Source: Acidimicrobiales bacterium (GTDB lineage: Bacteria; Actinomycetota; Acidimicrobiia; Acidimicrobiales; Bog-793). Taken from it: a stretch of DNA of 35,401 nucleotides. The translations under genes and the position numbers were made by a program. Positions 6,257 to 33,892 of this stretch are shown one piece after another. The stretch is taken from positions 1 to 35,401 of the forward strand of contig DASPSK010000325.1 in assembly GCA_035623975.1 (NCBI GenBank). Direction: 5' to 3'. The notes beneath the pieces were generated by a model. That model had not been told where the DNA came from and searched no databases. It worked only from the letters and a program-made list of their open reading frames with translations. Every line of letters begins with the position of its first letter. Positions within the stretch are counted from its first letter, which is position 1.

Positions 6257-7204
6257 TCAGGCGATCCGTATCCGGGGATCGGCAACGCACAAGGCGACAT
6301 CAGCGATGAGGTTCCCGATCACCGTGAGCACCCCGCCAATCAGCACGAGAGCGATCACGGTCGGGAAGTCCTCGCTGTTGAGCTCGTTCACGAACAGAAG
6401 GCCGAGGCCGTGGAAGTTGAACAGGTACTCCTCTATGACATCGCCGCCTATGAGCGCCGGTATCGAGAGGCCGACAAGGGTGATCATGGCGAGGCTGGCA
6501 TTCCTGAAGAGGTGGCGGCGCAGCACCCCCCGCTCGGAGAGGCCTTTGGCTCGGGCGAGGCGGATGTAGTCCTGCGCGAGGGCGTCCAGCGCCGACGATC
6601 GCATGTAGCGGGAGTAGCCGGCGATGCTCGTCGAGGCAAGCGTGACGATCGGGAGGAACATTGCCCGGATGTCGAGAATATTCTGCCAGATCGATTCCGA
6701 CTGGCTTGCCTCCGCTGGGAACCAGTGCACCTGCAGGGCCAGGAGGCCGATCAGGAGCAGCCCGAGGAAGTTGTCCGGCATCGAGTAGGCGGTGAAGGCC
6801 GCCGCCGTGAGCGACTGGTCGAGGAGCGTGTTACGCCTGACGGCCTGCAGGATGCCCAGCGGGATGGCGAGCACGACGGCGAGGAAGATGGCGATGCCGC
6901 AGAGGTAGGCGGTGCGTGCCCAGTTCTCGCCGAGCAGGGAGTCCACGGTCTGGTTGAGCTTGTACGAGTACCCGAGGTCGCCGTGGACGAGCTGGTTCAA
7001 GTAGGTCACGAACTGGTCCCAGACCGGACGGTCGTACCCGTGCGCCCTGTTCCAGTACGCCACGGCCAGAGCACTTACCTTGTCACCGAGAACAGCCCTG
7101 CCGGGGGAGGGGGCCACCACGTGGATCATGATGAAGGTGAGGAGGGCGATCCCGAGGACAACGATCACCGCGATGAGCATCCTGCGGATTATGTAAGCCG
7201 TCAT
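6257..7204 (-). CDS. ABC transporter permease (DppB/OppB-like)
   Basis: Starts MTAYIIRRMLIAVIVVLGIALLTF, the canonical DppB/OppB N-terminus. Contains an EAA loop (ARAKGLSERGVLRRHLFRNA). Confidence 0.9.
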   Translation of the reverse strand: MTAYIIRRMLIAVIVVLGIALLTFIMIHVVAPSPGRAVLGDKVSALAVAYWNRAHGYDRPVWDQFVTYLNQLVHGDLGYSYKLNQTVDSLLGENWARTAYLCGIAIFLAVVLAIPLGILQAVRRNTLLDQSLTAAAFTAYSMPDNFLGLLLIGLLALQVHWFPAEASQSESIWQNILDIRAMFLPIVTLASTSIAGYSRYMRSSALDALAQDYIRLARAKGLSERGVLRRHLFRNASLAMITLVGLSIPALIGGDVIEEYLFNFHGLGLLFVNELNSEDFPTVIALVLIGGVLTVIGNLIADVALCVADPRIRIA

Positions 7205-7278: not shown

Positions 7279-9180
7279 CTAATGCTTGGTGAAGTACCAG
7301 TATTCAGGCATGTACTGGTACTGCGACGATGCCTGGAAACTTGACGCCGGGCCTGCCAGCTTGTTGCTGAACGCCGTGATCAGGTCGGGGTTCGGCTGGA
7401 ACATCCCCGGCAGCTGCTCGGTGAGGAAGCTGATCTCGTTGAGCACTGCGTCCGGGTTGTCCGAATGCAGGGAGTCGTTGACGAGGCTGTCGTAGGTTGG
7501 GTTCGAATAGTCGCCGGTGTTGAACGAGCCCGTCGTGTTGAAGATGCCATCCTGCGTCGGGTAAAGGACGTCGGTGTCACCCCCGTAGTCCTGCATTGCC
7601 CAGAGACCGTCATGGTCCGGGTCGGCGGGATCGGAGAGCTCGCTGATGATGTAGTTGAACGTCTTGGCCTGGAGGTTGATGGATATCCCGATCAGCTTTG
7701 CGGCGGAGGCGATCGCCTCGCACTGAGCTCCGATAACGGCCGGCTGACTGGCGTAGACGAGGTTCCACGTAAGCGGCGTACCGGCGGGAATCCCCGCGCC
7801 GCACTCGTTCGGGCCGGTGCCGGCCTTGGCGCATGTCGTGGTTCCGTCGGGGACAACCTTCCAGCCGTGCGAGCTGAGCAACCGCAAAGCTGTCGAGATG
7901 CTGTAGGGATAAGGGTTCTTGAGGGCGTTGGGCGGAGCGAACGGACTCTTGGGGATGGCCGGCACAGGTCCGTAGGCCGCTCCGGCCGCACCGTCGAACA
8001 TCCCTCGTGCCGAGATGACTCCCTGCTCGTCCTGAAGGTGAGCGAGCGCTTGGCGAATGTAGAGCTGGGAGATGATGTTGTCGAAGTCGCCCGTGCGGTC
8101 CTTGAAGTTGTAGACGATGAAGCTGTTGCCGAAGTCCGGGTAACCCCAGACGTCGTAACCGAGCGACTTGAGCCTCGGGACCTGTTGCAGATCACTGAAA
8201 TCCACGAAACCCACATCCAGGTTCCCGCTCAGCAGCTCGTCGAACTCGGCCTCCGTGGAGGTGAAGGCGACGTCGTCGATCGTCGTGATGTGCGGCTTCA
8301 CCGGTCCGCTGTAGTTGGGATTGGCGACGAGAACGTTCCCATCCGTCGACGGGTCGAAGCTCTTTATCCTGTAGGGACCGTCTACGACCTGCCAGAGCGG
8401 ATCGGAGCCGTAAGTGGAGAGCTCGCTCGACTCGGCGTTGAGGAACTTATAGATCGCCTCGGCGTTGGCGAGGTTCCTGAAATTGATGATCGGGCCGTTG
8501 AGGCGGGTCTTGGACCAGGCGTGAGCGGGCAGTGGGGTGATCGTGGCGAGCTGGTCGAGGAACTGGAAGGTTGGGTTGAACGACTTGCTGAGTGTGATCA
8601 CAGCCGTGGTCGGACTGGGCGTCGCCACCGACACGAGGTCCTGCGGGAACTCCCCAGGCGTGAAGGATCCGTCGTTGTCAGGGCTCAGCACGACCGCCGC
8701 GTAGGCCAGATAGCAGTAGAAGGCAACGTCGGTCGACGTCACCGGCTGCCCGTCCGACCACTTCCAGTTGCTCCGCAGGGTGATGGTCGCCACCTTGTCG
8801 TCGTCGCTGAACTTGGGCGGCGCAGGCGAGATGCTGTCCGGCCAGTCGATCGTCGGTGCGTAGCCGAGAGGTGCCCACCACAGCGACCGCCACATGTAGT
8901 CGACGAGGCCGTCGACGGTCCCGACCGAGTCGTCGGCGGCCGGGACGATCGGGAGGATGTAGGTCGGACCGCCGCCCGGCGACTCGGCAATGGAGAGGGT
9001 GCCACCCATGATCGGCGTACCAGACGATGGCGGCAGAGATCCGTATTGGCCGTTCGACGGTGTCGTGACACCGCCAGCGGGACCGCTCCCAGATTTGGTG
9101 CCCGAGCCGCATGCTGCCAGCACCAACGCCGCTGCCGCCAAGGCTCCGGCTGTGCGAACCCGCGTTGACGTGGCCCTCAT
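7279..9180 (-). CDS. family-5 extracellular solute-binding lipoprotein (peptide/nickel/opine type, 633 aa)
   Basis: Signal peptide with lipobox LVLAAC-GSG. Length and sequence are typical of SBP_bac_5. First gene of a four-gene importer operon, with GAAAGGAGC upstream of the ATG. Confidence 0.9.
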   Translation of the reverse strand: MRATSTRVRTAGALAAAALVLAACGSGTKSGSGPAGGVTTPSNGQYGSLPPSSGTPIMGGTLSIAESPGGGPTYILPIVPAADDSVGTVDGLVDYMWRSLWWAPLGYAPTIDWPDSISPAPPKFSDDDKVATITLRSNWKWSDGQPVTSTDVAFYCYLAYAAVVLSPDNDGSFTPGEFPQDLVSVATPSPTTAVITLSKSFNPTFQFLDQLATITPLPAHAWSKTRLNGPIINFRNLANAEAIYKFLNAESSELSTYGSDPLWQVVDGPYRIKSFDPSTDGNVLVANPNYSGPVKPHITTIDDVAFTSTEAEFDELLSGNLDVGFVDFSDLQQVPRLKSLGYDVWGYPDFGNSFIVYNFKDRTGDFDNIISQLYIRQALAHLQDEQGVISARGMFDGAAGAAYGPVPAIPKSPFAPPNALKNPYPYSISTALRLLSSHGWKVVPDGTTTCAKAGTGPNECGAGIPAGTPLTWNLVYASQPAVIGAQCEAIASAAKLIGISINLQAKTFNYIISELSDPADPDHDGLWAMQDYGGDTDVLYPTQDGIFNTTGSFNTGDYSNPTYDSLVNDSLHSDNPDAVLNEISFLTEQLPGMFQPNPDLITAFSNKLAGPASSFQASSQYQYMPEYWYFTKH

Positions 9181-9359
9181 GCCTCGTAGCTCCTTTCAGG
9201 CGACGCCTGTGTCCCGACCGATGGCCCCATTTTGGCCCCCGCGGGTCAGTTGTGCTGGGCGTCAGTCCGCCGAGCGGAGTTTTCGACCGCTGAGCCGCAC
9301 GCAGGAGGCGGACCGAGCGCCCTGGCGGCATGTCTTCGGATCGACTGGGTCGGGGCAGT

Positions 9360-14959: not shown

Positions 14960-15289
14960 TCAGCCGCGGCAGTCGACCGCGACTTCGAGCGCCGCACAGA
15001 CCTCTCGCATCTTCTCGTCGCTGAGGCGCCCGAGGCGTTCGACCAAGACACCCACGGAGACGCTCTCGACCGAGTCGAGGTTGATGGCCGAGCGCTGCGG
15101 GATGGGATCTTCCCGGGGATCCAGACGGACCTCGCTCGCCAGACCTCGGATCGTCGTCGTGCAAGGCGCAACGAGGGCTCGGCGGAGCCTGGGAATAGCC
15201 ACGTCCCGCGAGAGGACAACGACTGGACGCCGTCCGACCTGCTGGAGCTCGCACCACCAGACTTCCCCCCTGGCGGGAAGTGGGCTCAC
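14960..15289 (-). CDS. mazF: MazF/PemK-family type II toxin endoribonuclease
   Basis: Contains GEVWWCEL...[11 protein letters not shown]...[14 protein letters not shown], the typical PemK/MazF fold signature. GTG start overlaps the antitoxin stop (GTGA at 15286-15289). Confidence 0.8.
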
Positions 15290-15522
15290 GATGAGGCCGC
15301 CGCCTCACGGAAGGAAGCGAGGTCACCCCATGCGTCCGCTTCGTCAAGCGGATGCTTGTCGTAGGCGGCGTAGCCCGCGTCGACCTCGGCCGCGCGGTGC
15401 TTGGCAACTAAAGCCTCAAGCGCCTCATCGAGGAGCGCCGCGTCCGACGTGTTCGGGCGGATACGACGCGCCGTCGCCAGGCGACCCTCATCGACGGTCG
15501 TGCTCACTCGGACTCTGCTCAT
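15286..15522 (-). CDS. mazE: MazE-like type II antitoxin (78 aa)
   Basis: Small acidic protein directly upstream of and coupled to mazF. N-terminal [15 protein letters not shown] is RHH/MazE-like. The C-terminal [19 protein letters not shown] resembles mycobacterial MazE antitoxins. Confidence 0.65.
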
Positions 15523-27730: not shown

Positions 27731-28507
27731 TCAGGTCCGCACGGCGGCGCCCCCGGAGCGGGGAACGCTGCGATTGACGATTTCCAGCTGCTGGGCGGTC
27801 TGACGGCGGAGGGCGGACAGCTGGTTCGATGTGAGCACGTGGCAGACCCAGTCCCAGTGCAGCGCCACCCACTCCCCGGGCTGTGGAGGAGCGATGAAGG
27901 CACGGCCGTCGTGTCGCCAGGGCAGCGTCTCGTCTCGCAAACTGCCGAGCACGAGCGACGCCCCCGTCCAGAGAAGGCCCTGCCCACGCACGCTCACCTC
28001 GTCGCCGGCCAGATCCTGCACGCGCCCCCACCGCACACGGCACTTCTCGAGGACGCGCAACGGCTCGGGTGAGCGCCCGGCCTTCAGCAATGCCACCCAC
28101 GGGTAGACGGAGAAGACGTGGAAGTTGTGATGCGGGCATGCTCCCGGGTCGAGCTCGCCCCTCTGGCGCCGCCCGGCGTCAAGGCCGGGGAGGAAGCGCC
28201 CGTGGACGAGCGCCCGCAAGCTCGCCCGTGAGACGCCCTCGAGCAGACCGTTACCGATCCAGTAGGCCTCCACGACGCGGGCATCGAGCGGATCGTCGAT
28301 GCCGTTGGCGTCCGCGATCAGCTCGAGGTAGGGCCACGCCCCTTCGAAACCCCGCGCCAGCCCCCGAAGTACGTGACCCTCACCACCGTCGGCGGCCTGC
28401 TCGAGGAGCGCCTCAGGGTCGTCCGGTCCGCACAGCCCGAGGGAGTTGGGCGGATAGGCGAAACGAGCAAAGAGCGAGGCGCCCGCGGGCGCCGCCTTGG
28501 GACCCAC
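27731..28507 (-). CDS. conserved hypothetical protein at the tail of the hydrogenase operon (resembles what I recall as DUF6390)
   Basis: GTG start lies 3 nt after the hypC stop. The sequence is protein-like with conserved-looking Cys/His patches (LGLCGPDD, GACPHHNFHVFSVYPW, WDWVCH). The family name is from memory and needs an HMM check. Confidence 0.6.
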   Translation of the reverse strand: MGPKAAPAGASLFARFAYPPNSLGLCGPDDPEALLEQAADGGEGHVLRGLARGFEGAWPYLELIADANGIDDPLDARVVEAYWIGNGLLEGVSRASLRALVHGRFLPGLDAGRRQRGELDPGACPHHNFHVFSVYPWVALLKAGRSPEPLRVLEKCRVRWGRVQDLAGDEVSVRGQGLLWTGASLVLGSLRDETLPWRHDGRAFIAPPQPGEWVALHWDWVCHVLTSNQLSALRRQTAQQLEIVNRSVPRSGGAAVRT

Positions 28508-28510
28508 GGC

Positions 28511-28762
28511 TCAGCGACTCCTGGCGGCGTGCGCCCGCATCTGCGCGTGGGCCCGAACGAGCTCGCGGGCCTCGTCGTCGCCCAGCACGCGCACGGCCAG
28601 TCCCGTGTGGATCAGCAACCAATCGCCCGGCATCACCTCGACTCCGTCGAATTGCAGCAGCGCGACCGAGGCGCGCCGCCTCGAGCCCTCGACGGCGACG
28701 ATCACCACGCCGCTCTCGGCGTCCTCGACGGCGACGACCTGGCCGATCTGCTCGACGCACAT
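28511..28762 (-). CDS. hypC: HypC/HybG/HupF-family hydrogenase maturation chaperone (83 aa)
   Basis: Starts MCVEQIGQVVAV with the invariant Met-Cys. Also has ...PGDWLLIHTGLAV. Its ATG shares one base with the protease stop (TGATG). Confidence 0.85.
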   Translation of the reverse strand: MCVEQIGQVVAVEDAESGVVIVAVEGSRRRASVALLQFDGVEVMPGDWLLIHTGLAVRVLGDDEARELVRAHAQMRAHAARSR

Positions 28763-29238
28763 CAGCCGGAGGTCTCCCCGCCACCCGGCGCCGTCTTCAG
28801 CAGATCCTCGAGGAGAGCCTCGAGGGCCTCTTCCACCGGCGGCGAGAGACCGACACCGTCGCTGACATCGCCCGCCTCGATTCCCAGCAGCAGGAGGTGC
28901 TCCGGCAGGCGGTCGAGGGCGCGGCCGAGCTCGATCGCCTCGGCCACCCCGAGACCGTGCGTGCTCACGGCCGCCACCGGGGCGGCGGCGTCCCACTGGC
29001 CCTGGACGCACTCGAAGCGGTGGAGATCGCCTGGCCGCCCCCCCGAGTCGACGGCGTCGACGAGCACGACCCTCTCCCAGCCGGACCAGCGCTGTACGAG
29101 CGCCACGGGCTCGCCGCTCTCCTCGACGAGATCCGCGTCCTGCACGCCGCGCTGGCGCAGCCGCTCGATGGCGGCGATGCCGACGCCGTCGTCATGGCGG
29201 AAGGGGTTGCCGACTCCGATGATGAGCGCCCTGCTCAC
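28762..29238 (-). CDS. [NiFe]-hydrogenase maturation endopeptidase (HycI/HoxW-type, 158 aa)
   Basis: Contains LIIGVGNPFRHDDGVG, LVDAVD and STHGLG motifs. GTG at 29238 overlaps the large-subunit stop (GTGA). Confidence 0.85.
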   Translation of the reverse strand: MSRALIIGVGNPFRHDDGVGIAAIERLRQRGVQDADLVEESGEPVALVQRWSGWERVVLVDAVDSGGRPGDLHRFECVQGQWDAAAPVAAVSTHGLGVAEAIELGRALDRLPEHLLLLGIEAGDVSDGVGLSPPVEEALEALLEDLLKTAPGGGETSG

Positions 29239-30242
29239 CTCGACACCCGATCCACCCGGAGATCGAGGAAGTGCGTGGCGCAGGAGATGCACGGGTCGTA
29301 ATTGCGGATCGTGTGCTCGCAGCGCGCCGTCAGTGCGAGATCGTCGAGGTGGAGGTTGGCTTGCACGACGTGGGTCAGGTCGTGCTCGATCGCTCGCTGG
29401 TTCTGCGAGGTCGGAGGAACGATCGTCGCCGCCATGATCACACCGTCGGCGTCTATCTCGTAGCGGTGGTAGAGGAGGCCGCGGGGTGCCTCGCTGGCAC
29501 CGTGGCCGATGGCCGCACGCGGCACGACCTCTACGGCGGGTGCGGGGGGAGGCACGTACTCCGCGATGAGCCGGAGCGCCTCTTCACAGGCGGCCACCAC
29601 CTCGACCGCCCGCACCACGATGCTCTGGAACGGGTTGCGGCACACGGGCCCGAGCCCGGCGTCGGCCGCCGCCTTGCGGGCTACGGCGGGCAGGAGGCCG
29701 TGGCTGAGGCTGTAGCGGGCAAGCGGCCCGACGACGTACTCCCCCCCGTCCCAGCGCGCGTGCAGGGCGTTGCTGTGCTCGACGTGCTCCTCTCGAATGT
29801 GGTGCGAGAACTCCGAGACAGGAATGTCGAGCCGGCCGCTCACCGATCCGATCCTTCTTCCCATGATTGGGTACTCGGCGCCGTCCGCGAGGGCCACGAG
29901 CTCCCAGTCGCCTTCGTAGGCCGGGATGGGAAACCCCGCCACCCACTCCACGGTCTCGAGCGCCGCCCGCCGCGCCCACTCCAGCTCGGGAACCAACTCG
30001 GCGAGCTCGCTCGGCGCCGGCAGGCGGTAGAAACCCCCCACGCGCACGTTGACCGGGTGGATCGCCCGACCACCGATCACCTCGAGGAGCCGGTTGCCGA
30101 TCTTCTTCAGGCGCAGCCCTCGCTCCACGACGGCCCGGTGGTCCTTCGCCATCGAGATGGCACCGTCGTAGCCGAGGAAGTCCGGCGCATGCAGCATGTA
30201 GATGTGGAGGGCGTGGCTCTCGATCCACTCGCCGCAGTAGAG
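29235..30242 (-). CDS. hyhL: group 3b [NiFe]-hydrogenase large (alpha) subunit, C-terminal 335 codons downstream of an in-frame TAG
   Basis: Reads LYCGEWIESHALHIYMLHAPDFLG...PRGLLYHRY...VPPTSQN...RNYDPCISCATH (C-terminal Ni-ligand motif). It is in the same frame as the fragment 30243-30542. The first ATG, used as the track ORF start, is at 30197. Confidence 0.8.
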   Translation of the reverse strand, partial: LYCGEWIESHALHIYMLHAPDFLGYDGAISMAKDHRAVVERGLRLKKIGNRLLEVIGGRAIHPVNVRVGGFYRLPAPSELAELVPELEWARRAALETVEWVAGFPIPAYEGDWELVALADGAEYPIMGRRIGSVSGRLDIPVSEFSHHIREEHVEHSNALHARWDGGEYVVGPLARYSLSHGLLPAVARKAAADAGLGPVCRNPFQSIVVRAVEVVAACEEALRLIAEYVPPPAPAVEVVPRAAIGHGASEAPRGLLYHRYEIDADGVIMAATIVPPTSQNQRAIEHDLTHVVQANLHLDDLALTARCEHTIRNYDPCISCATHFLDLRVDRVSR

Positions 30243-30542
30243 CTAGCGTCGCAGGGCGCCAAGCTGCCCGTCCACGACGGCTCCGCAGGCGTCCTCGATC
30301 GCCAGGCAGGCGCTCATCTGGTAGGCGACCGGGCAGATCCCGCAGATGCGAGCCGTGATGTCGGGAGGCTCTTCGAAACCTCTCCCTCGCAAGAAGGCCT
30401 CGAAGAACCGCGGAGGCTCGTAGATGTTCAGCTGCACATCGGTCAGCTCACCGTCGGTGATGGTCACGTGCAGCGCCCCTTCGCCCTCCACGCGGGTCAG
30501 GGCGTGGACGTCGAGGCTCCGCGTGCCGTTCCCATGGGTCAT
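30243..30542 (-). CDS. hyhL: group 3b [NiFe]-hydrogenase large (alpha) subunit, N-terminal 99 codons ending at an in-frame TAG (30243-30245)
   Basis: Reads [22 protein letters not shown]...[17 protein letters not shown] (N-terminal RxCGxC Ni-ligand motif). ATG at 30542 with GAGAGAGG upstream. Confidence 0.8.
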
Positions 30543-30555
30543 GTCGGGACCTCTC

Positions 30556-31323
30556 TCATGGCTGGCCGACCTCGCGAAAACCTGCGGCGTCGGCGTTGAA
30601 GGTGTGAAAGACCCGCCTGATAGCGCCGTCGGACATGGGAGCGGACCGGAGGAGCTGTACGAACGCCGTGGCGTTGATGGTGTCGGCCGGACCGTAGCAG
30701 CCGTAGCAGCCGCGGTTGAACGCCGGGCAGATCGCTCCACAGCCGGCATGGGTGACCGGTCCGAGGCAGGGAGTCCCGTGTGCCACCGTGACGCAGGTCG
30801 TTCCTCGGCGCTTGCACTCCACGCACACCGAGGCGGACTGCAGGCGCGGCGGCTTGCCGAGCAGATAGGAGGAGACCACGTGCAGGAGCTGGGACTTGTT
30901 GACCGGACAGCCGCGCAGCTCGAAGTCCACGCTGACGTGCTGCGACATCGGCGTCGAGGTCGCCAGTGTCTCGATGTACGCCGGCTCGGCATAGACGATG
31001 GAGGTGTACTCCTCCACGTCGGCAAAATTGCGCAGCGCCTGCACGCCGCCCGCCGTGGCGCACGCACCGATCGAGATGAGCACCTTCGACTGCGCCCGGA
31101 TCTGGCGGATCCGCTCGACATCGTCGGCCGTCGTCACCGACCCTTCGACGATGGACAGATCGTAGGGACCTGCCACCGACGTGCTCGCCGCCTCGAGGAA
31201 ATGGGCGAAGTCGACCGCGCCGGCCACCGCCAGCAGCTCGTCCTCGCAATCGAGCAGCGTCAGCTGGCAGCCGTCGCAGGAGGCGAACTTCCACACGGCG
31301 ACTTGGGGAAGTCCCGGGCTCAC
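30556..31323 (-). CDS. hyhS: group 3b [NiFe]-hydrogenase small (delta) subunit, NuoB-like Fe-S protein (255 aa)
   Basis: Contains [23 protein letters not shown] and GCP, plus distal Cys clusters ([28 protein letters not shown]). GTG at 31323 overlaps the gamma stop (GTGA). Confidence 0.85.
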
Positions 31324-32174
31324 AGCTCGCGGACCTCCAGTAGCGGTTGCGCCACGTCCCAGGTGACGACGGGACCGTCCGTGCAGACGAACGAGCCCGC
31401 CAGCTGGCAATGGCCACAGTGGGCGATGGCGCACTGCATGTTCCGCTCGAGCGACACCTGGATGCGCTCGGCGGCCACCCCCCGCTCGACGAGGTGGAGG
31501 GCCACGAAACGCATCATCACCTCAGGTCCGCAGACCATTGCCACGGTGCGACCCGGGTCGATGGGCACCCGGGGGAGCTCGTTGGTCACGATGCCCACGT
31601 TTCCCTGCCAGTCCTCGGACCCACGGTCGACGATCGTCCGTACCGTGATGGCGCCCTCGCGCCACCAACCGTCGAGCTCGGAGCGGAACAGCAGCTCCTC
31701 GGCGCTCCGGGCACCCACGACGAGTGAGACACCGCGAAAGGCGGATCGCTCGGCCAGGGCCGCGTGCACCACCGGACGCAGGGGAGCAAGCCCGATGCCG
31801 CCGGCGACGATGACGACATCACCGTCCCGGGCGGAGTCGACGTCCCAACCGCGGCCGAAAGGCCCGCGGATTCCGACGACGTCTCCGCGCTCCTTGGCGC
31901 AGAGGGCACCCGTCACCCCGCCGACGTCGCGCACGGTATGGACGAGAACGCCCTCGCCCGTCGTGGCGCTGGCGGAGATGGGCGCCTCACCCACGCCCCA
32001 GGACCAGAGCATGTTGAACTGCCCAGGTGCGATCGCCGGGACCGGCTCGCTCTCTGCCTCGAGCGTCATCGTCACGGTGACGTCGGTCTCGTGCACCGTG
32101 CTCACCACCCGGTAGAGCACGGGTCGCATGGGGCCACCGGCCCGGACGGCCTCGGAGCCTTCAGGCACGATCAT
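31320..32174 (-). CDS. hyhG: group 3b hydrogenase gamma subunit (FAD/NAD(P)-binding, AsrB-like, C-terminal 2Fe-2S)
   Basis: Ferredoxin-reductase-type fold ([30 protein letters not shown]) and a C-terminal [11 protein letters not shown]...C cluster. Start at 32174 (ATG, 14-nt overlap with the upstream gene) or at 32129. Confidence 0.8.
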
Positions 32175-32631
32175 GGCCGAAGAGGTCGAGCAGCCGCAGC
32201 CGGGCCGACTCGAGGCGTTCCTCCATGATGGTGGCCACCGCCGTCATCAGGCGGAACCCCGCCGCCGGGTTCTCCTCCAGGTACGGGAGGATGCAGTCGG
32301 CGTGCAGCTCGATGGCGCGCACGTGCTCGACGGCGACGGCGTCGAAGTGCCAGAGGTAGGGGGGAAGCACCCACGACCAGCCCATGATGTCGCCGGTCTG
32401 CAGCGTCTCGAGCCCGACAAGCCCTTTGCTGGGAACGTGCACGCCCACTTTCACCCGACCGGCGCGGATGGCGAAGAAACTCCTGGCGGGCGTGCCTTCA
32501 GTGCACAGGGCGGCGCCCGCCTCGAACACCACGTTGGTGGCGCACTCAGCCAGCCGCCGCGTGAGCTCGTCGGGCAGCTGCTGGAAGAAACGGTGGGCGG
32601 CCAGCTCCTCAGTCATCGTCGTCGGTCGCAT
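32161..32631 (-). CDS. cNMP-binding-fold protein with a degenerate phosphate-binding cassette, embedded in the hydrogenase operon (156 aa)
   Basis: ATG at 32631 lies 1 nt after the beta-subunit stop. Beta-barrel pattern [46 protein letters not shown]. The usual GE..AL....R[ST]A cassette is replaced by [19 protein letters not shown]. Confidence 0.75.
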
Positions 32632-32632
32632 C

Positions 32633-33814
32633 TCAGGTGACCCCCTTTGCCGAAGCAGTTTCGTCAGTGCCGCGTATGGCTCGCACCTCTTCGGTGATGT
32701 CGATGCCGACAGGGCACCAGGCGATGCACCGCCCGCAGCCCACGCAGCCCGACACACCGAACTGGTCCCACCACGTTGACAGCTTGTGCGTCATCCACTG
32801 CCGGTAACGGGACTTCGTCGAGACCCGGAGCGAGCCGCCGTGGACGTACGAATGGCTGAGCTGGAAGCAGGACGACCATTCGCGCACCCGCTCGTCGATG
32901 CCGGAGGCCGCACTCGGCTGATCGCTGACGTCGGCGCAGAAACACGTCGGGCACGCCATGGTGCAGTTGCCGCACGACAGGCAGCGATTGGCGACATCGT
33001 CCCAGCGAGGGTGGTTCGTCGCCTCCCGCAGTATCCCGGGCAGACGGTCGGTGTTCATCGACCTCTGCATCCGCCCGACCGCTGTCTCGATGACGCTCGC
33101 CGCCGCCTCCAGCTCGGCGTCCCCGGCCGCCCGGGAGGTGAGACCGGCGGCCACGGCCTGCCCGCGATCGGTCACCACCTGGACGACGAAGCGGTGCCGG
33201 CTCGGGACGGCCGGATCGAGCTCGGTGAGAATCAGATCCGCGCCGACCCCGACCTCAGGGCCTGTGCCCATCGAAGCACAGAAGCACGTCGATGCCGGGT
33301 CGCTGCAGTTGACACCGACGAGGAACAGCCCCTCGCGGCGGCCCCCGTAGACCGGGTCCGCATAGCGCCCGTGCACGAAGACCCTGTCCTGCACCCCGAT
33401 AGCGGCCAGGTCGCACGCACGGATGCCGAAGAAGGCCAGGGGCGACCGGGCCGGCGGCTGCTCCTCGAAGATCACGCGATCGCCCTCACGGCGGGACCGC
33501 CAGAGCACCGACCGGGGGGGGAACAGATAGCGCTTCCAGGTCCCGGCCGGGGCGGCGAAGCCGAAGAAGGCATCGTCGCCCCGTTCGGCCAAGCGGTACC
33601 TGCCGGGCTCCTGGGCGTCACCCCAACCCCGCGGGAGCTGGCTGGCGGACGTGATGGGCTCGATGACGACGGAGCCGTCACGCACCGTCGGCCCGAGCAC
33701 CTCGTAGCCCGCCTGGGCGAGTGCGGCCAGCAGCTCGTCGAGGCCGGACGGCTCGATCACCACATGAGCGCGAGCCGACGCGGGCGAAGGAGGCACGTAC
33801 GCAGACTGCCTCAC
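32633..33814 (-). CDS. hyhB: group 3b hydrogenase beta subunit (4Fe-4S dicluster protein, AsrA-like)
   Basis: Contains [16 protein letters not shown] and [12 protein letters not shown] ferredoxin-type motifs, plus the upstream [10 protein letters not shown]. 393 aa with a GTG start. Confidence 0.85.
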
Positions 33815-33892
33815 ACCGAGCGAGTTCTCAAGGGCTGGAAGTCCTCAGCTTCCGGGTCCAACGACCATGGCACGAGGATGTCGACGGTCCCA

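Follow-up and report, generated by a model that had tools for sequence, protein, structure and literature searches.

We found that the gene for the catalytic large (alpha) subunit of a group 3b [NiFe]-hydrogenase in an uncultured Acidimicrobiales bacterium is interrupted by an in-frame amber codon, TAG, at codon 100. Judging from the comparison with related sequences, this stop is probably a very recent inactivating nonsense mutation, T to A at position 30244, which changed Leu-100 from TTG to TAG. The DNA analysed, called the window here, is the whole stretch of 35,401 nucleotides at positions 1 to 35,401 of contig DASPSK010000325.1 (assembly GCA_035623975.1). All positions are those of the window unless another contig is named, and the hydrogenase genes lie on its minus strand.

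Results

The interrupted alpha-subunit gene

The alpha gene (hyhL/hydA-like) is located at 29235-30542 (-). Its translation gave 436 codons, composed of 434 sense codons, one internal stop after residue 99 and a terminal TGA. The internal stop codon, at 30245-30243 (-), reads TAG, and the fragments on both sides of it are in the same frame, as the preliminary description of this DNA had stated. The N-terminal fragment (30246-30542, 99 codons) contains the nickel-ligand motif RxCGxC in the form RICGIC at residues 65-70. The C-terminal fragment (29235-30242, 335 sense codons and the terminal stop) contains the motif DPCxxCxxH in the form DPCISCATH at residues 416-424, which is followed by 11 residues. 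Both motifs were located by translation in the fragments to which they had been assigned. Where termination at the TAG is efficient, the N-terminal fragment is expected to be the sole product. For this contig, NCBI lists a 320-aa product of the C-terminal fragment, starting at ATG 30197. The TAG was therefore part of the sequence when it was deposited and did not arise in later handling.

The alpha frame is also open for 579 nt upstream of the true ATG at 30542, across the small-subunit gene, and an ORF listing therefore gives a 292-aa ORF at 30243-31121 (-). On the evidence of the fetched homologues, which begin at the methionine of MTH, this ORF is a high-GC artefact and not an N-terminal extension.

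Identity of the enzyme and its operon

When the stop was masked, the joined protein matched Pfam NiFeSe_Hases. Its residues 12-426 gave an unbroken alignment to residues 10-426 of P. furiosus sulfhydrogenase I alpha (PDB 9nez_D; E 1.4e-67), which agrees with the earlier claim that the two fragments are collinear parts of one protein. The cytosolic hydrogenase alpha subunit of T. kodakarensis (PDB 5yxy_A) was matched with E 2.9e-64, and in the PDB ranking 3b-type alpha subunits came ahead of Mvh, Frh and group 1 enzymes. The best NCBIfam models for the alpha subunit were ShyA and HydA, both under their equivalog cut-offs, and the C-terminus gave a weak match to the NCBIfam VhuU model.

Upstream of the alpha gene are four intact genes. 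The beta subunit gene (32633-33796, -; Fer4_22 iron-sulfur protein, NCBIfam best HydB/ShyB) is followed by a gene for a protein with a cyclic-nucleotide-binding (cNMP) domain (32161-32631, -), the gamma subunit gene (31320-32174, -; NAD(P)/FAD-binding, Pfam NAD_binding_1/DHODB_Fe-S_bind) and the small (delta) subunit gene (30556-31323, -; Pfam Oxidored_q6, NCBIfam best HydD/ShyD). The gamma subunit matched ShyC/HydG of NCBIfam with E 3e-40 and 9e-39, while AsrB and two other FAD/NAD-binding families were stronger. Downstream are the genes for a hydrogenase maturation endopeptidase of the HycI/HupD family (28762-29238, -), which has 4 nt in common with the end of the alpha gene, a HypC-family chaperone (28511-28762, -) and a DUF6390 protein (27731-28507, -), the last gene of the cluster. 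None of these seven genes has an internal stop and their spacing consists of overlaps or gaps of ≤13 nt, so that the neighbours are intact and tightly coupled as previously described. The assignment of the alpha subunit to group 3b also held, because sulfhydrogenase alphas are the best PDB matches and beta, gamma and delta genes adjoin.

At the level of sequence, the locus is a bacterial group 3b [NiFe]-hydrogenase operon, in which all the features tested hold except one. The exception is the uninterrupted frame of about 430 aa, which is absent in the window allele and present in a near-identical ENA contig. NCBIfam scores far under the equivalog cut-offs place the enzyme, on its sequence, in a distant bacterial branch of group 3b. 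Like P. furiosus SHI (HydBGDA), the T. kodakarensis cytosolic hydrogenase and M. smegmatis Hyh, the first two of which were aligned, it has a full-length collinear alpha subunit. It shares with the sulfhydrogenase type the beta, gamma and delta partners, and the maturation protease and HypC genes are downstream. However, the window operon differs from that type in the TAG at alpha codon 100, the cNMP-binding-domain gene and the DUF6390 gene.

The cNMP-binding-domain protein has 156 aa, and its gene lies between the beta and gamma genes, in the same place in the sister loci L003-L012. It could be a regulatory or accessory subunit. The DUF6390 gene directly follows hypC; its product matched the Pfam model with E 4e-86 and had no NCBIfam match. 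A DUF6390 gene adjoins the hydrogenase in about 20 fetched loci, some of distant lineages, and by this association DUF6390 looks like an uncharacterised hydrogenase-associated protein. In the sister lineage, a gene for a luciferase-like monooxygenase (Bac_luciferase, 263 aa; L003 5795-6586) is located between the PPTase and beta genes. The window lineage has only a 96-nt spacer (33797-33892) at this junction.

An intact allele in a near-identical contig

A protein search found a 435-aa protein with Leu at residue 100 and no difference from the window alpha subunit at any of its 434 sense residues. Its gene lies on ENA contig ERZ27251322:k141_2043489 (35,396 bp), whose sequence was retrieved in three overlapping pieces. 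In an end-to-end alignment, positions 3-35396 of this contig corresponded to 35401-1 of the window with 99.88% identity, 34 mismatches and 4 gap openings, and the two sequences share termini to within 2 nt. The site reads CGC TTG CTC in the ENA contig and CGC TAG CTC in the window, that is, the coding strands differ by a single T-to-A change. Since the contig with 99.88% identity carries TTG, the stop is a single-base change at window 30244. TTG (Leu) had been listed in the preliminary description as one possible ancestor of the TAG, and a comparison with close relatives had been proposed. The near-identical contig, which carries TTG and encodes an uninterrupted protein, bears out this ancestor, and Leu is the conserved residue at the position.

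The TAG allele was searched for elsewhere. In exact look-ups, the 99-aa and 320-aa fragments were absent from every other contig. Look-ups of the flanking small-subunit, HycI and DUF6390 proteins returned only the TTG contig and short contigs of two other samples, one of which spans codon 100 and reads CTG. The A at 30244 was absent from all other assemblies of the population that cover the codon. A search of JGI metagenome contigs with the 23 nt that surround the site, the SNP being left as N, found only two distant hydrogenases, both with TTG. A literature search on premature stops in hydrogenase large subunits found nothing specific.

Conservation of codon 100

Column 100 is in a strongly conserved stretch, LRR-L-LYCGEWIE. 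Among 121 aligned homologous proteins it is occupied by Leu in 117, Ile in three and Met in one. The codon was counted in 92 homologous loci of many phyla, including relatives found by a protein-based scan of GTDB genomes, which among the matches listed had ≤69% identity. All 92 loci have a Leu codon (CTG 58, CTC 21, TTG 9, CTT 3, TTA 1). An internal stop was found in none of the 92 loci, and a stop at column 100 in none of the 121 proteins.

The nearest sister lineage, known from peat metagenomes and Acidimicrobiales MAGs (more than 20 contigs in all), carries CTG at codon 100, and so does a third close haplotype, the ENA contig ERZ27251241:k141_2519640 (L096). Since the second codon base is T in both, T is the ancestral and A the derived base. 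Against the sister lineage, at 86% nucleotide identity, dN/dS was 0.084; by this measure the alpha gene was under strong long-term purifying selection until very recently. There was no other lesion in the operon and no further decay. The low dN/dS and the otherwise undamaged operon indicate that the stop, if it is real, is very young.

Haplotype variation around the operon

The differences between the window and the near-identical ENA contig are of several kinds. In a patch of the OppB permease gene (6617-7163, -), 14 SNPs were found in about 550 bp, composed of 13 synonymous third-position changes and one Leu-to-Val change. This patch looks like a recombination tract from a related strain. 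A hypervariable patch at 9022-9095, in the N-terminus of the solute-binding protein gene (SBP_bac_5; 7279-9180, -), contains SNPs and in-frame indels, so that, without a frameshift, the window protein (633 aa) is two residues longer than its counterpart in the ENA contig (631 aa). There is also a 1-bp intergenic indel at 9283, upstream of SBP_bac_5. Seven isolated SNPs were found in the 26 kb first compared: three synonymous, three missense (PPTase D43G, DUF6390 W116R and BNR-repeat protein A188D) and one nonsense. These isolated SNPs are more random-looking than the clustered ones, a pattern that fits either very young mutations or errors.

The W116R SNP, at 28162, sets the window apart from the ENA contig in a variable column of DUF6390. 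The Arg-116 allele of the window recurs in contigs of two other samples, ERZ27251241 and ERZ27251239, whose divergence from the window is about 0.1%. For the most part, the window and the near-identical ENA contig differ in ways that errors do not create and that look like real divergence between strains. By its sequence, the window represents a haplotype of its own, or a mosaic of haplotypes that occur together, and the population is micro-diverse, with about 0.1% SNP diversity. At such diversity, occasional unpurged nonsense alleles are to be expected.

The L096 contig matches window 30077-32132. It is 100% identical to the window over 1735 bp, and its two ends have 68% and 93% identity. Its 3' switch point is at about 30282 of the window, 37 nt upstream of the TAG. 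L096 may be either a recombinant strain or an assembly chimera.

Elsewhere in the window, at 14960-15522 (-), two genes overlap: a PemK-family toxin gene (109 aa) and, upstream of it, a 78-aa gene of unknown family whose 3' end lies in the overlap. From this arrangement, the two genes are probably a toxin-antitoxin pair.

Use of TAG and signals around the stop

Among 29 window genes, checked through the gene calls on the matching ENA contig, four are terminated by TAG (PPK2, CoA_binding_2 and two others) and the other 25 by TGA. The alpha gene is the only one of the 29 with an internal stop. No tRNA gene was found in the 35-kb window. For a 121-nt stretch that spans the stop and the sequence after it, the predicted fold had an MFE of -43.8 kcal/mol, compared with a mean of -41.0 kcal/mol for shuffled sequences (z = -0.84).

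A usable restart had been denied in the preliminary description, and we came to the same result. There is no ATG, GTG or TTG in frame between the TAG and ATG 30197, which is the first start. Initiation at this ATG drops 15 residues, LYCGEWIESHALHIY, among which Y, C, G, E and W hardly vary in the family, and no Shine-Dalgarno-like sequence at normal spacing was found in the 18 nt upstream of it.

Discussion

Three origins of the TAG had been proposed: a nonsense mutation, a consensus error and tolerated read-through. The first two remain, and the third found no support. We favour with some confidence the first, in which T changed to A at 30244 in a single strain haplotype within an uncultured Acidimicrobiales-like population, and the A would be present in real cells and not be a consensus artefact. 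If the organism instead has TTG and an intact, working hydrogenase, the A at 30244 would be an artefact of low coverage or of the handling of a strain-variable region by the assembler. Such a consensus, assembly or sequencing error is the main rival explanation, though the less likely of the two. It is consistent with the intact allele in a near-identical contig whose termini lie so close to those of the window, and with a gene that is otherwise perfectly conserved and strongly constrained. The TAG is a singleton among assemblies, which counts against a real allele and for an error, and the haplotype switch of L096 only 37 nt from the site points to a complex or tangled assembly graph. However, the synonymous blocks, the in-frame indels and the recurring allele, which make up most of what else separates the two sequences, are clearly biological. 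A chimera of co-occurring haplotypes was rejected as a source of the stop, since the known haplotypes read TTG and CTG, and mixing them cannot yield an A. In addition, substitution errors in a short-read consensus are rarer than real SNPs at a diversity of about 0.1%, which argues for a real SNP here.

In the remaining explanations the TAG is real and the enzyme is kept; the analysis found no support for any of them. Read-through by near-cognate decoding or by an amber-suppressor tRNA could give enough full-length subunit for some activity, but this is very unlikely. TAG is an ordinary terminator in the window, no homologous locus or protein has a stop at this column, and the RNA at the stop folds no better than shuffled sequences. 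Moreover, the column accepts only Leu, Ile or Met, whereas the residues that near-cognate tRNAs usually place at a UAG are Gln, Tyr, Lys and Trp. It would be a little less probable still that a real TAG has been kept because it is a leaky stop, read by a suppressor tRNA or a near-cognate one, and acts as a 'dimmer' of the hydrogenase and not as a knockout. Natural two-piece large subunits do exist: in VhuA/VhuU of the Methanococcus F420-non-reducing hydrogenase, the large subunit is encoded in two consecutive pieces, and the C-terminus of the window protein has its weak VhuU match. The 99-aa N-terminal fragment and a separately initiated C-terminal fragment might likewise form an active large subunit. 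However, the VhuA/VhuU split is near the C-terminus, is conserved and has translation signals of its own for each piece, whereas the break in the window is at residue 100, has no restart signal and is common to no relative. The missing start codon before ATG 30197, the loss of nearly invariant residues upon restart, the lack of a Shine-Dalgarno-like sequence at normal spacing and the absence of a split in all 92 homologous loci make a split enzyme hardly credible, and by the sequence it is effectively refuted already. Reassignment or recoding of the TAG, for example to pyrrolysine, has a negligible chance and was rejected, because TAG normally ends genes here such as PPK2 and CoA_binding_2, of the 29 genes only the alpha gene has a TAG within its frame, and the homologous column is a conserved Leu with a Leu codon in every locus. 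As in the UGA-selenocysteine subunits of [NiFeSe] enzymes, an in-frame stop lies inside a hydrogenase large subunit gene; unlike them, the codon is TAG and not TGA, residue 100 is not a C-terminal ligand, and the column is Leu and not Cys or Sec. Selenocysteine, which the preliminary description had dismissed, is thus ruled out by its wrong codon and wrong position.

If the nonsense allele is real, translation of the catalytic subunit would end after 99 residues. Most of the fold and the C-terminal ligand pair would be missing, and hence no active group 3b (NAD(P)-linked, fermentative) hydrogenase could form. The 4-nt overlap between the alpha and protease genes suggests that downstream translational coupling would also be lost. 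The allele would be a young loss-of-function variant, the enzyme would be dispensable under some conditions, and decay would not yet have reached the other genes of the operon.

Hyh of M. smegmatis produces H2 fermentatively when the cells are hypoxic (bioRxiv 10.1101/2023.09.11.557286). Individual Frankia strains have pseudogenes in the group 3b operon whereas their relatives are intact (PMC11879354). By analogy with M. smegmatis Hyh and these Frankia strains, the enzyme may be dispensable, and loss of a group 3b enzyme is biologically plausible. As proposed here, an actinobacterial group 3b operon is disabled strain-wise in Frankia EUN1h and F. soli NRRL B-16219 (PMC11879354). These Frankia strains have two pseudogenes, whereas the window has one predicted single-base lesion with the intact allele in a contig of 99.88% identity. 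A single-base nonsense difference from an otherwise identical allele is an ordinary event or an ordinary artefact, and the feature is not new in kind.

The finding has little biological weight, and its practical value is a caution in annotation. The 320-aa 'hydrogenase' fragment in the NCBI record should be treated as a disrupted gene, and whether a group 3b hydrogenase is counted as present or absent in the metabolism of this MAG should not hang on one unchecked base. If the recent nonsense mutation is real, one strain of a soil or peat Acidimicrobiales-like population would have newly acquired a null allele of a fermentative hydrogenase that is useful under some conditions. Very close strains are expected to differ by deleterious variants that have not yet been purged, and this allele would be one of them.
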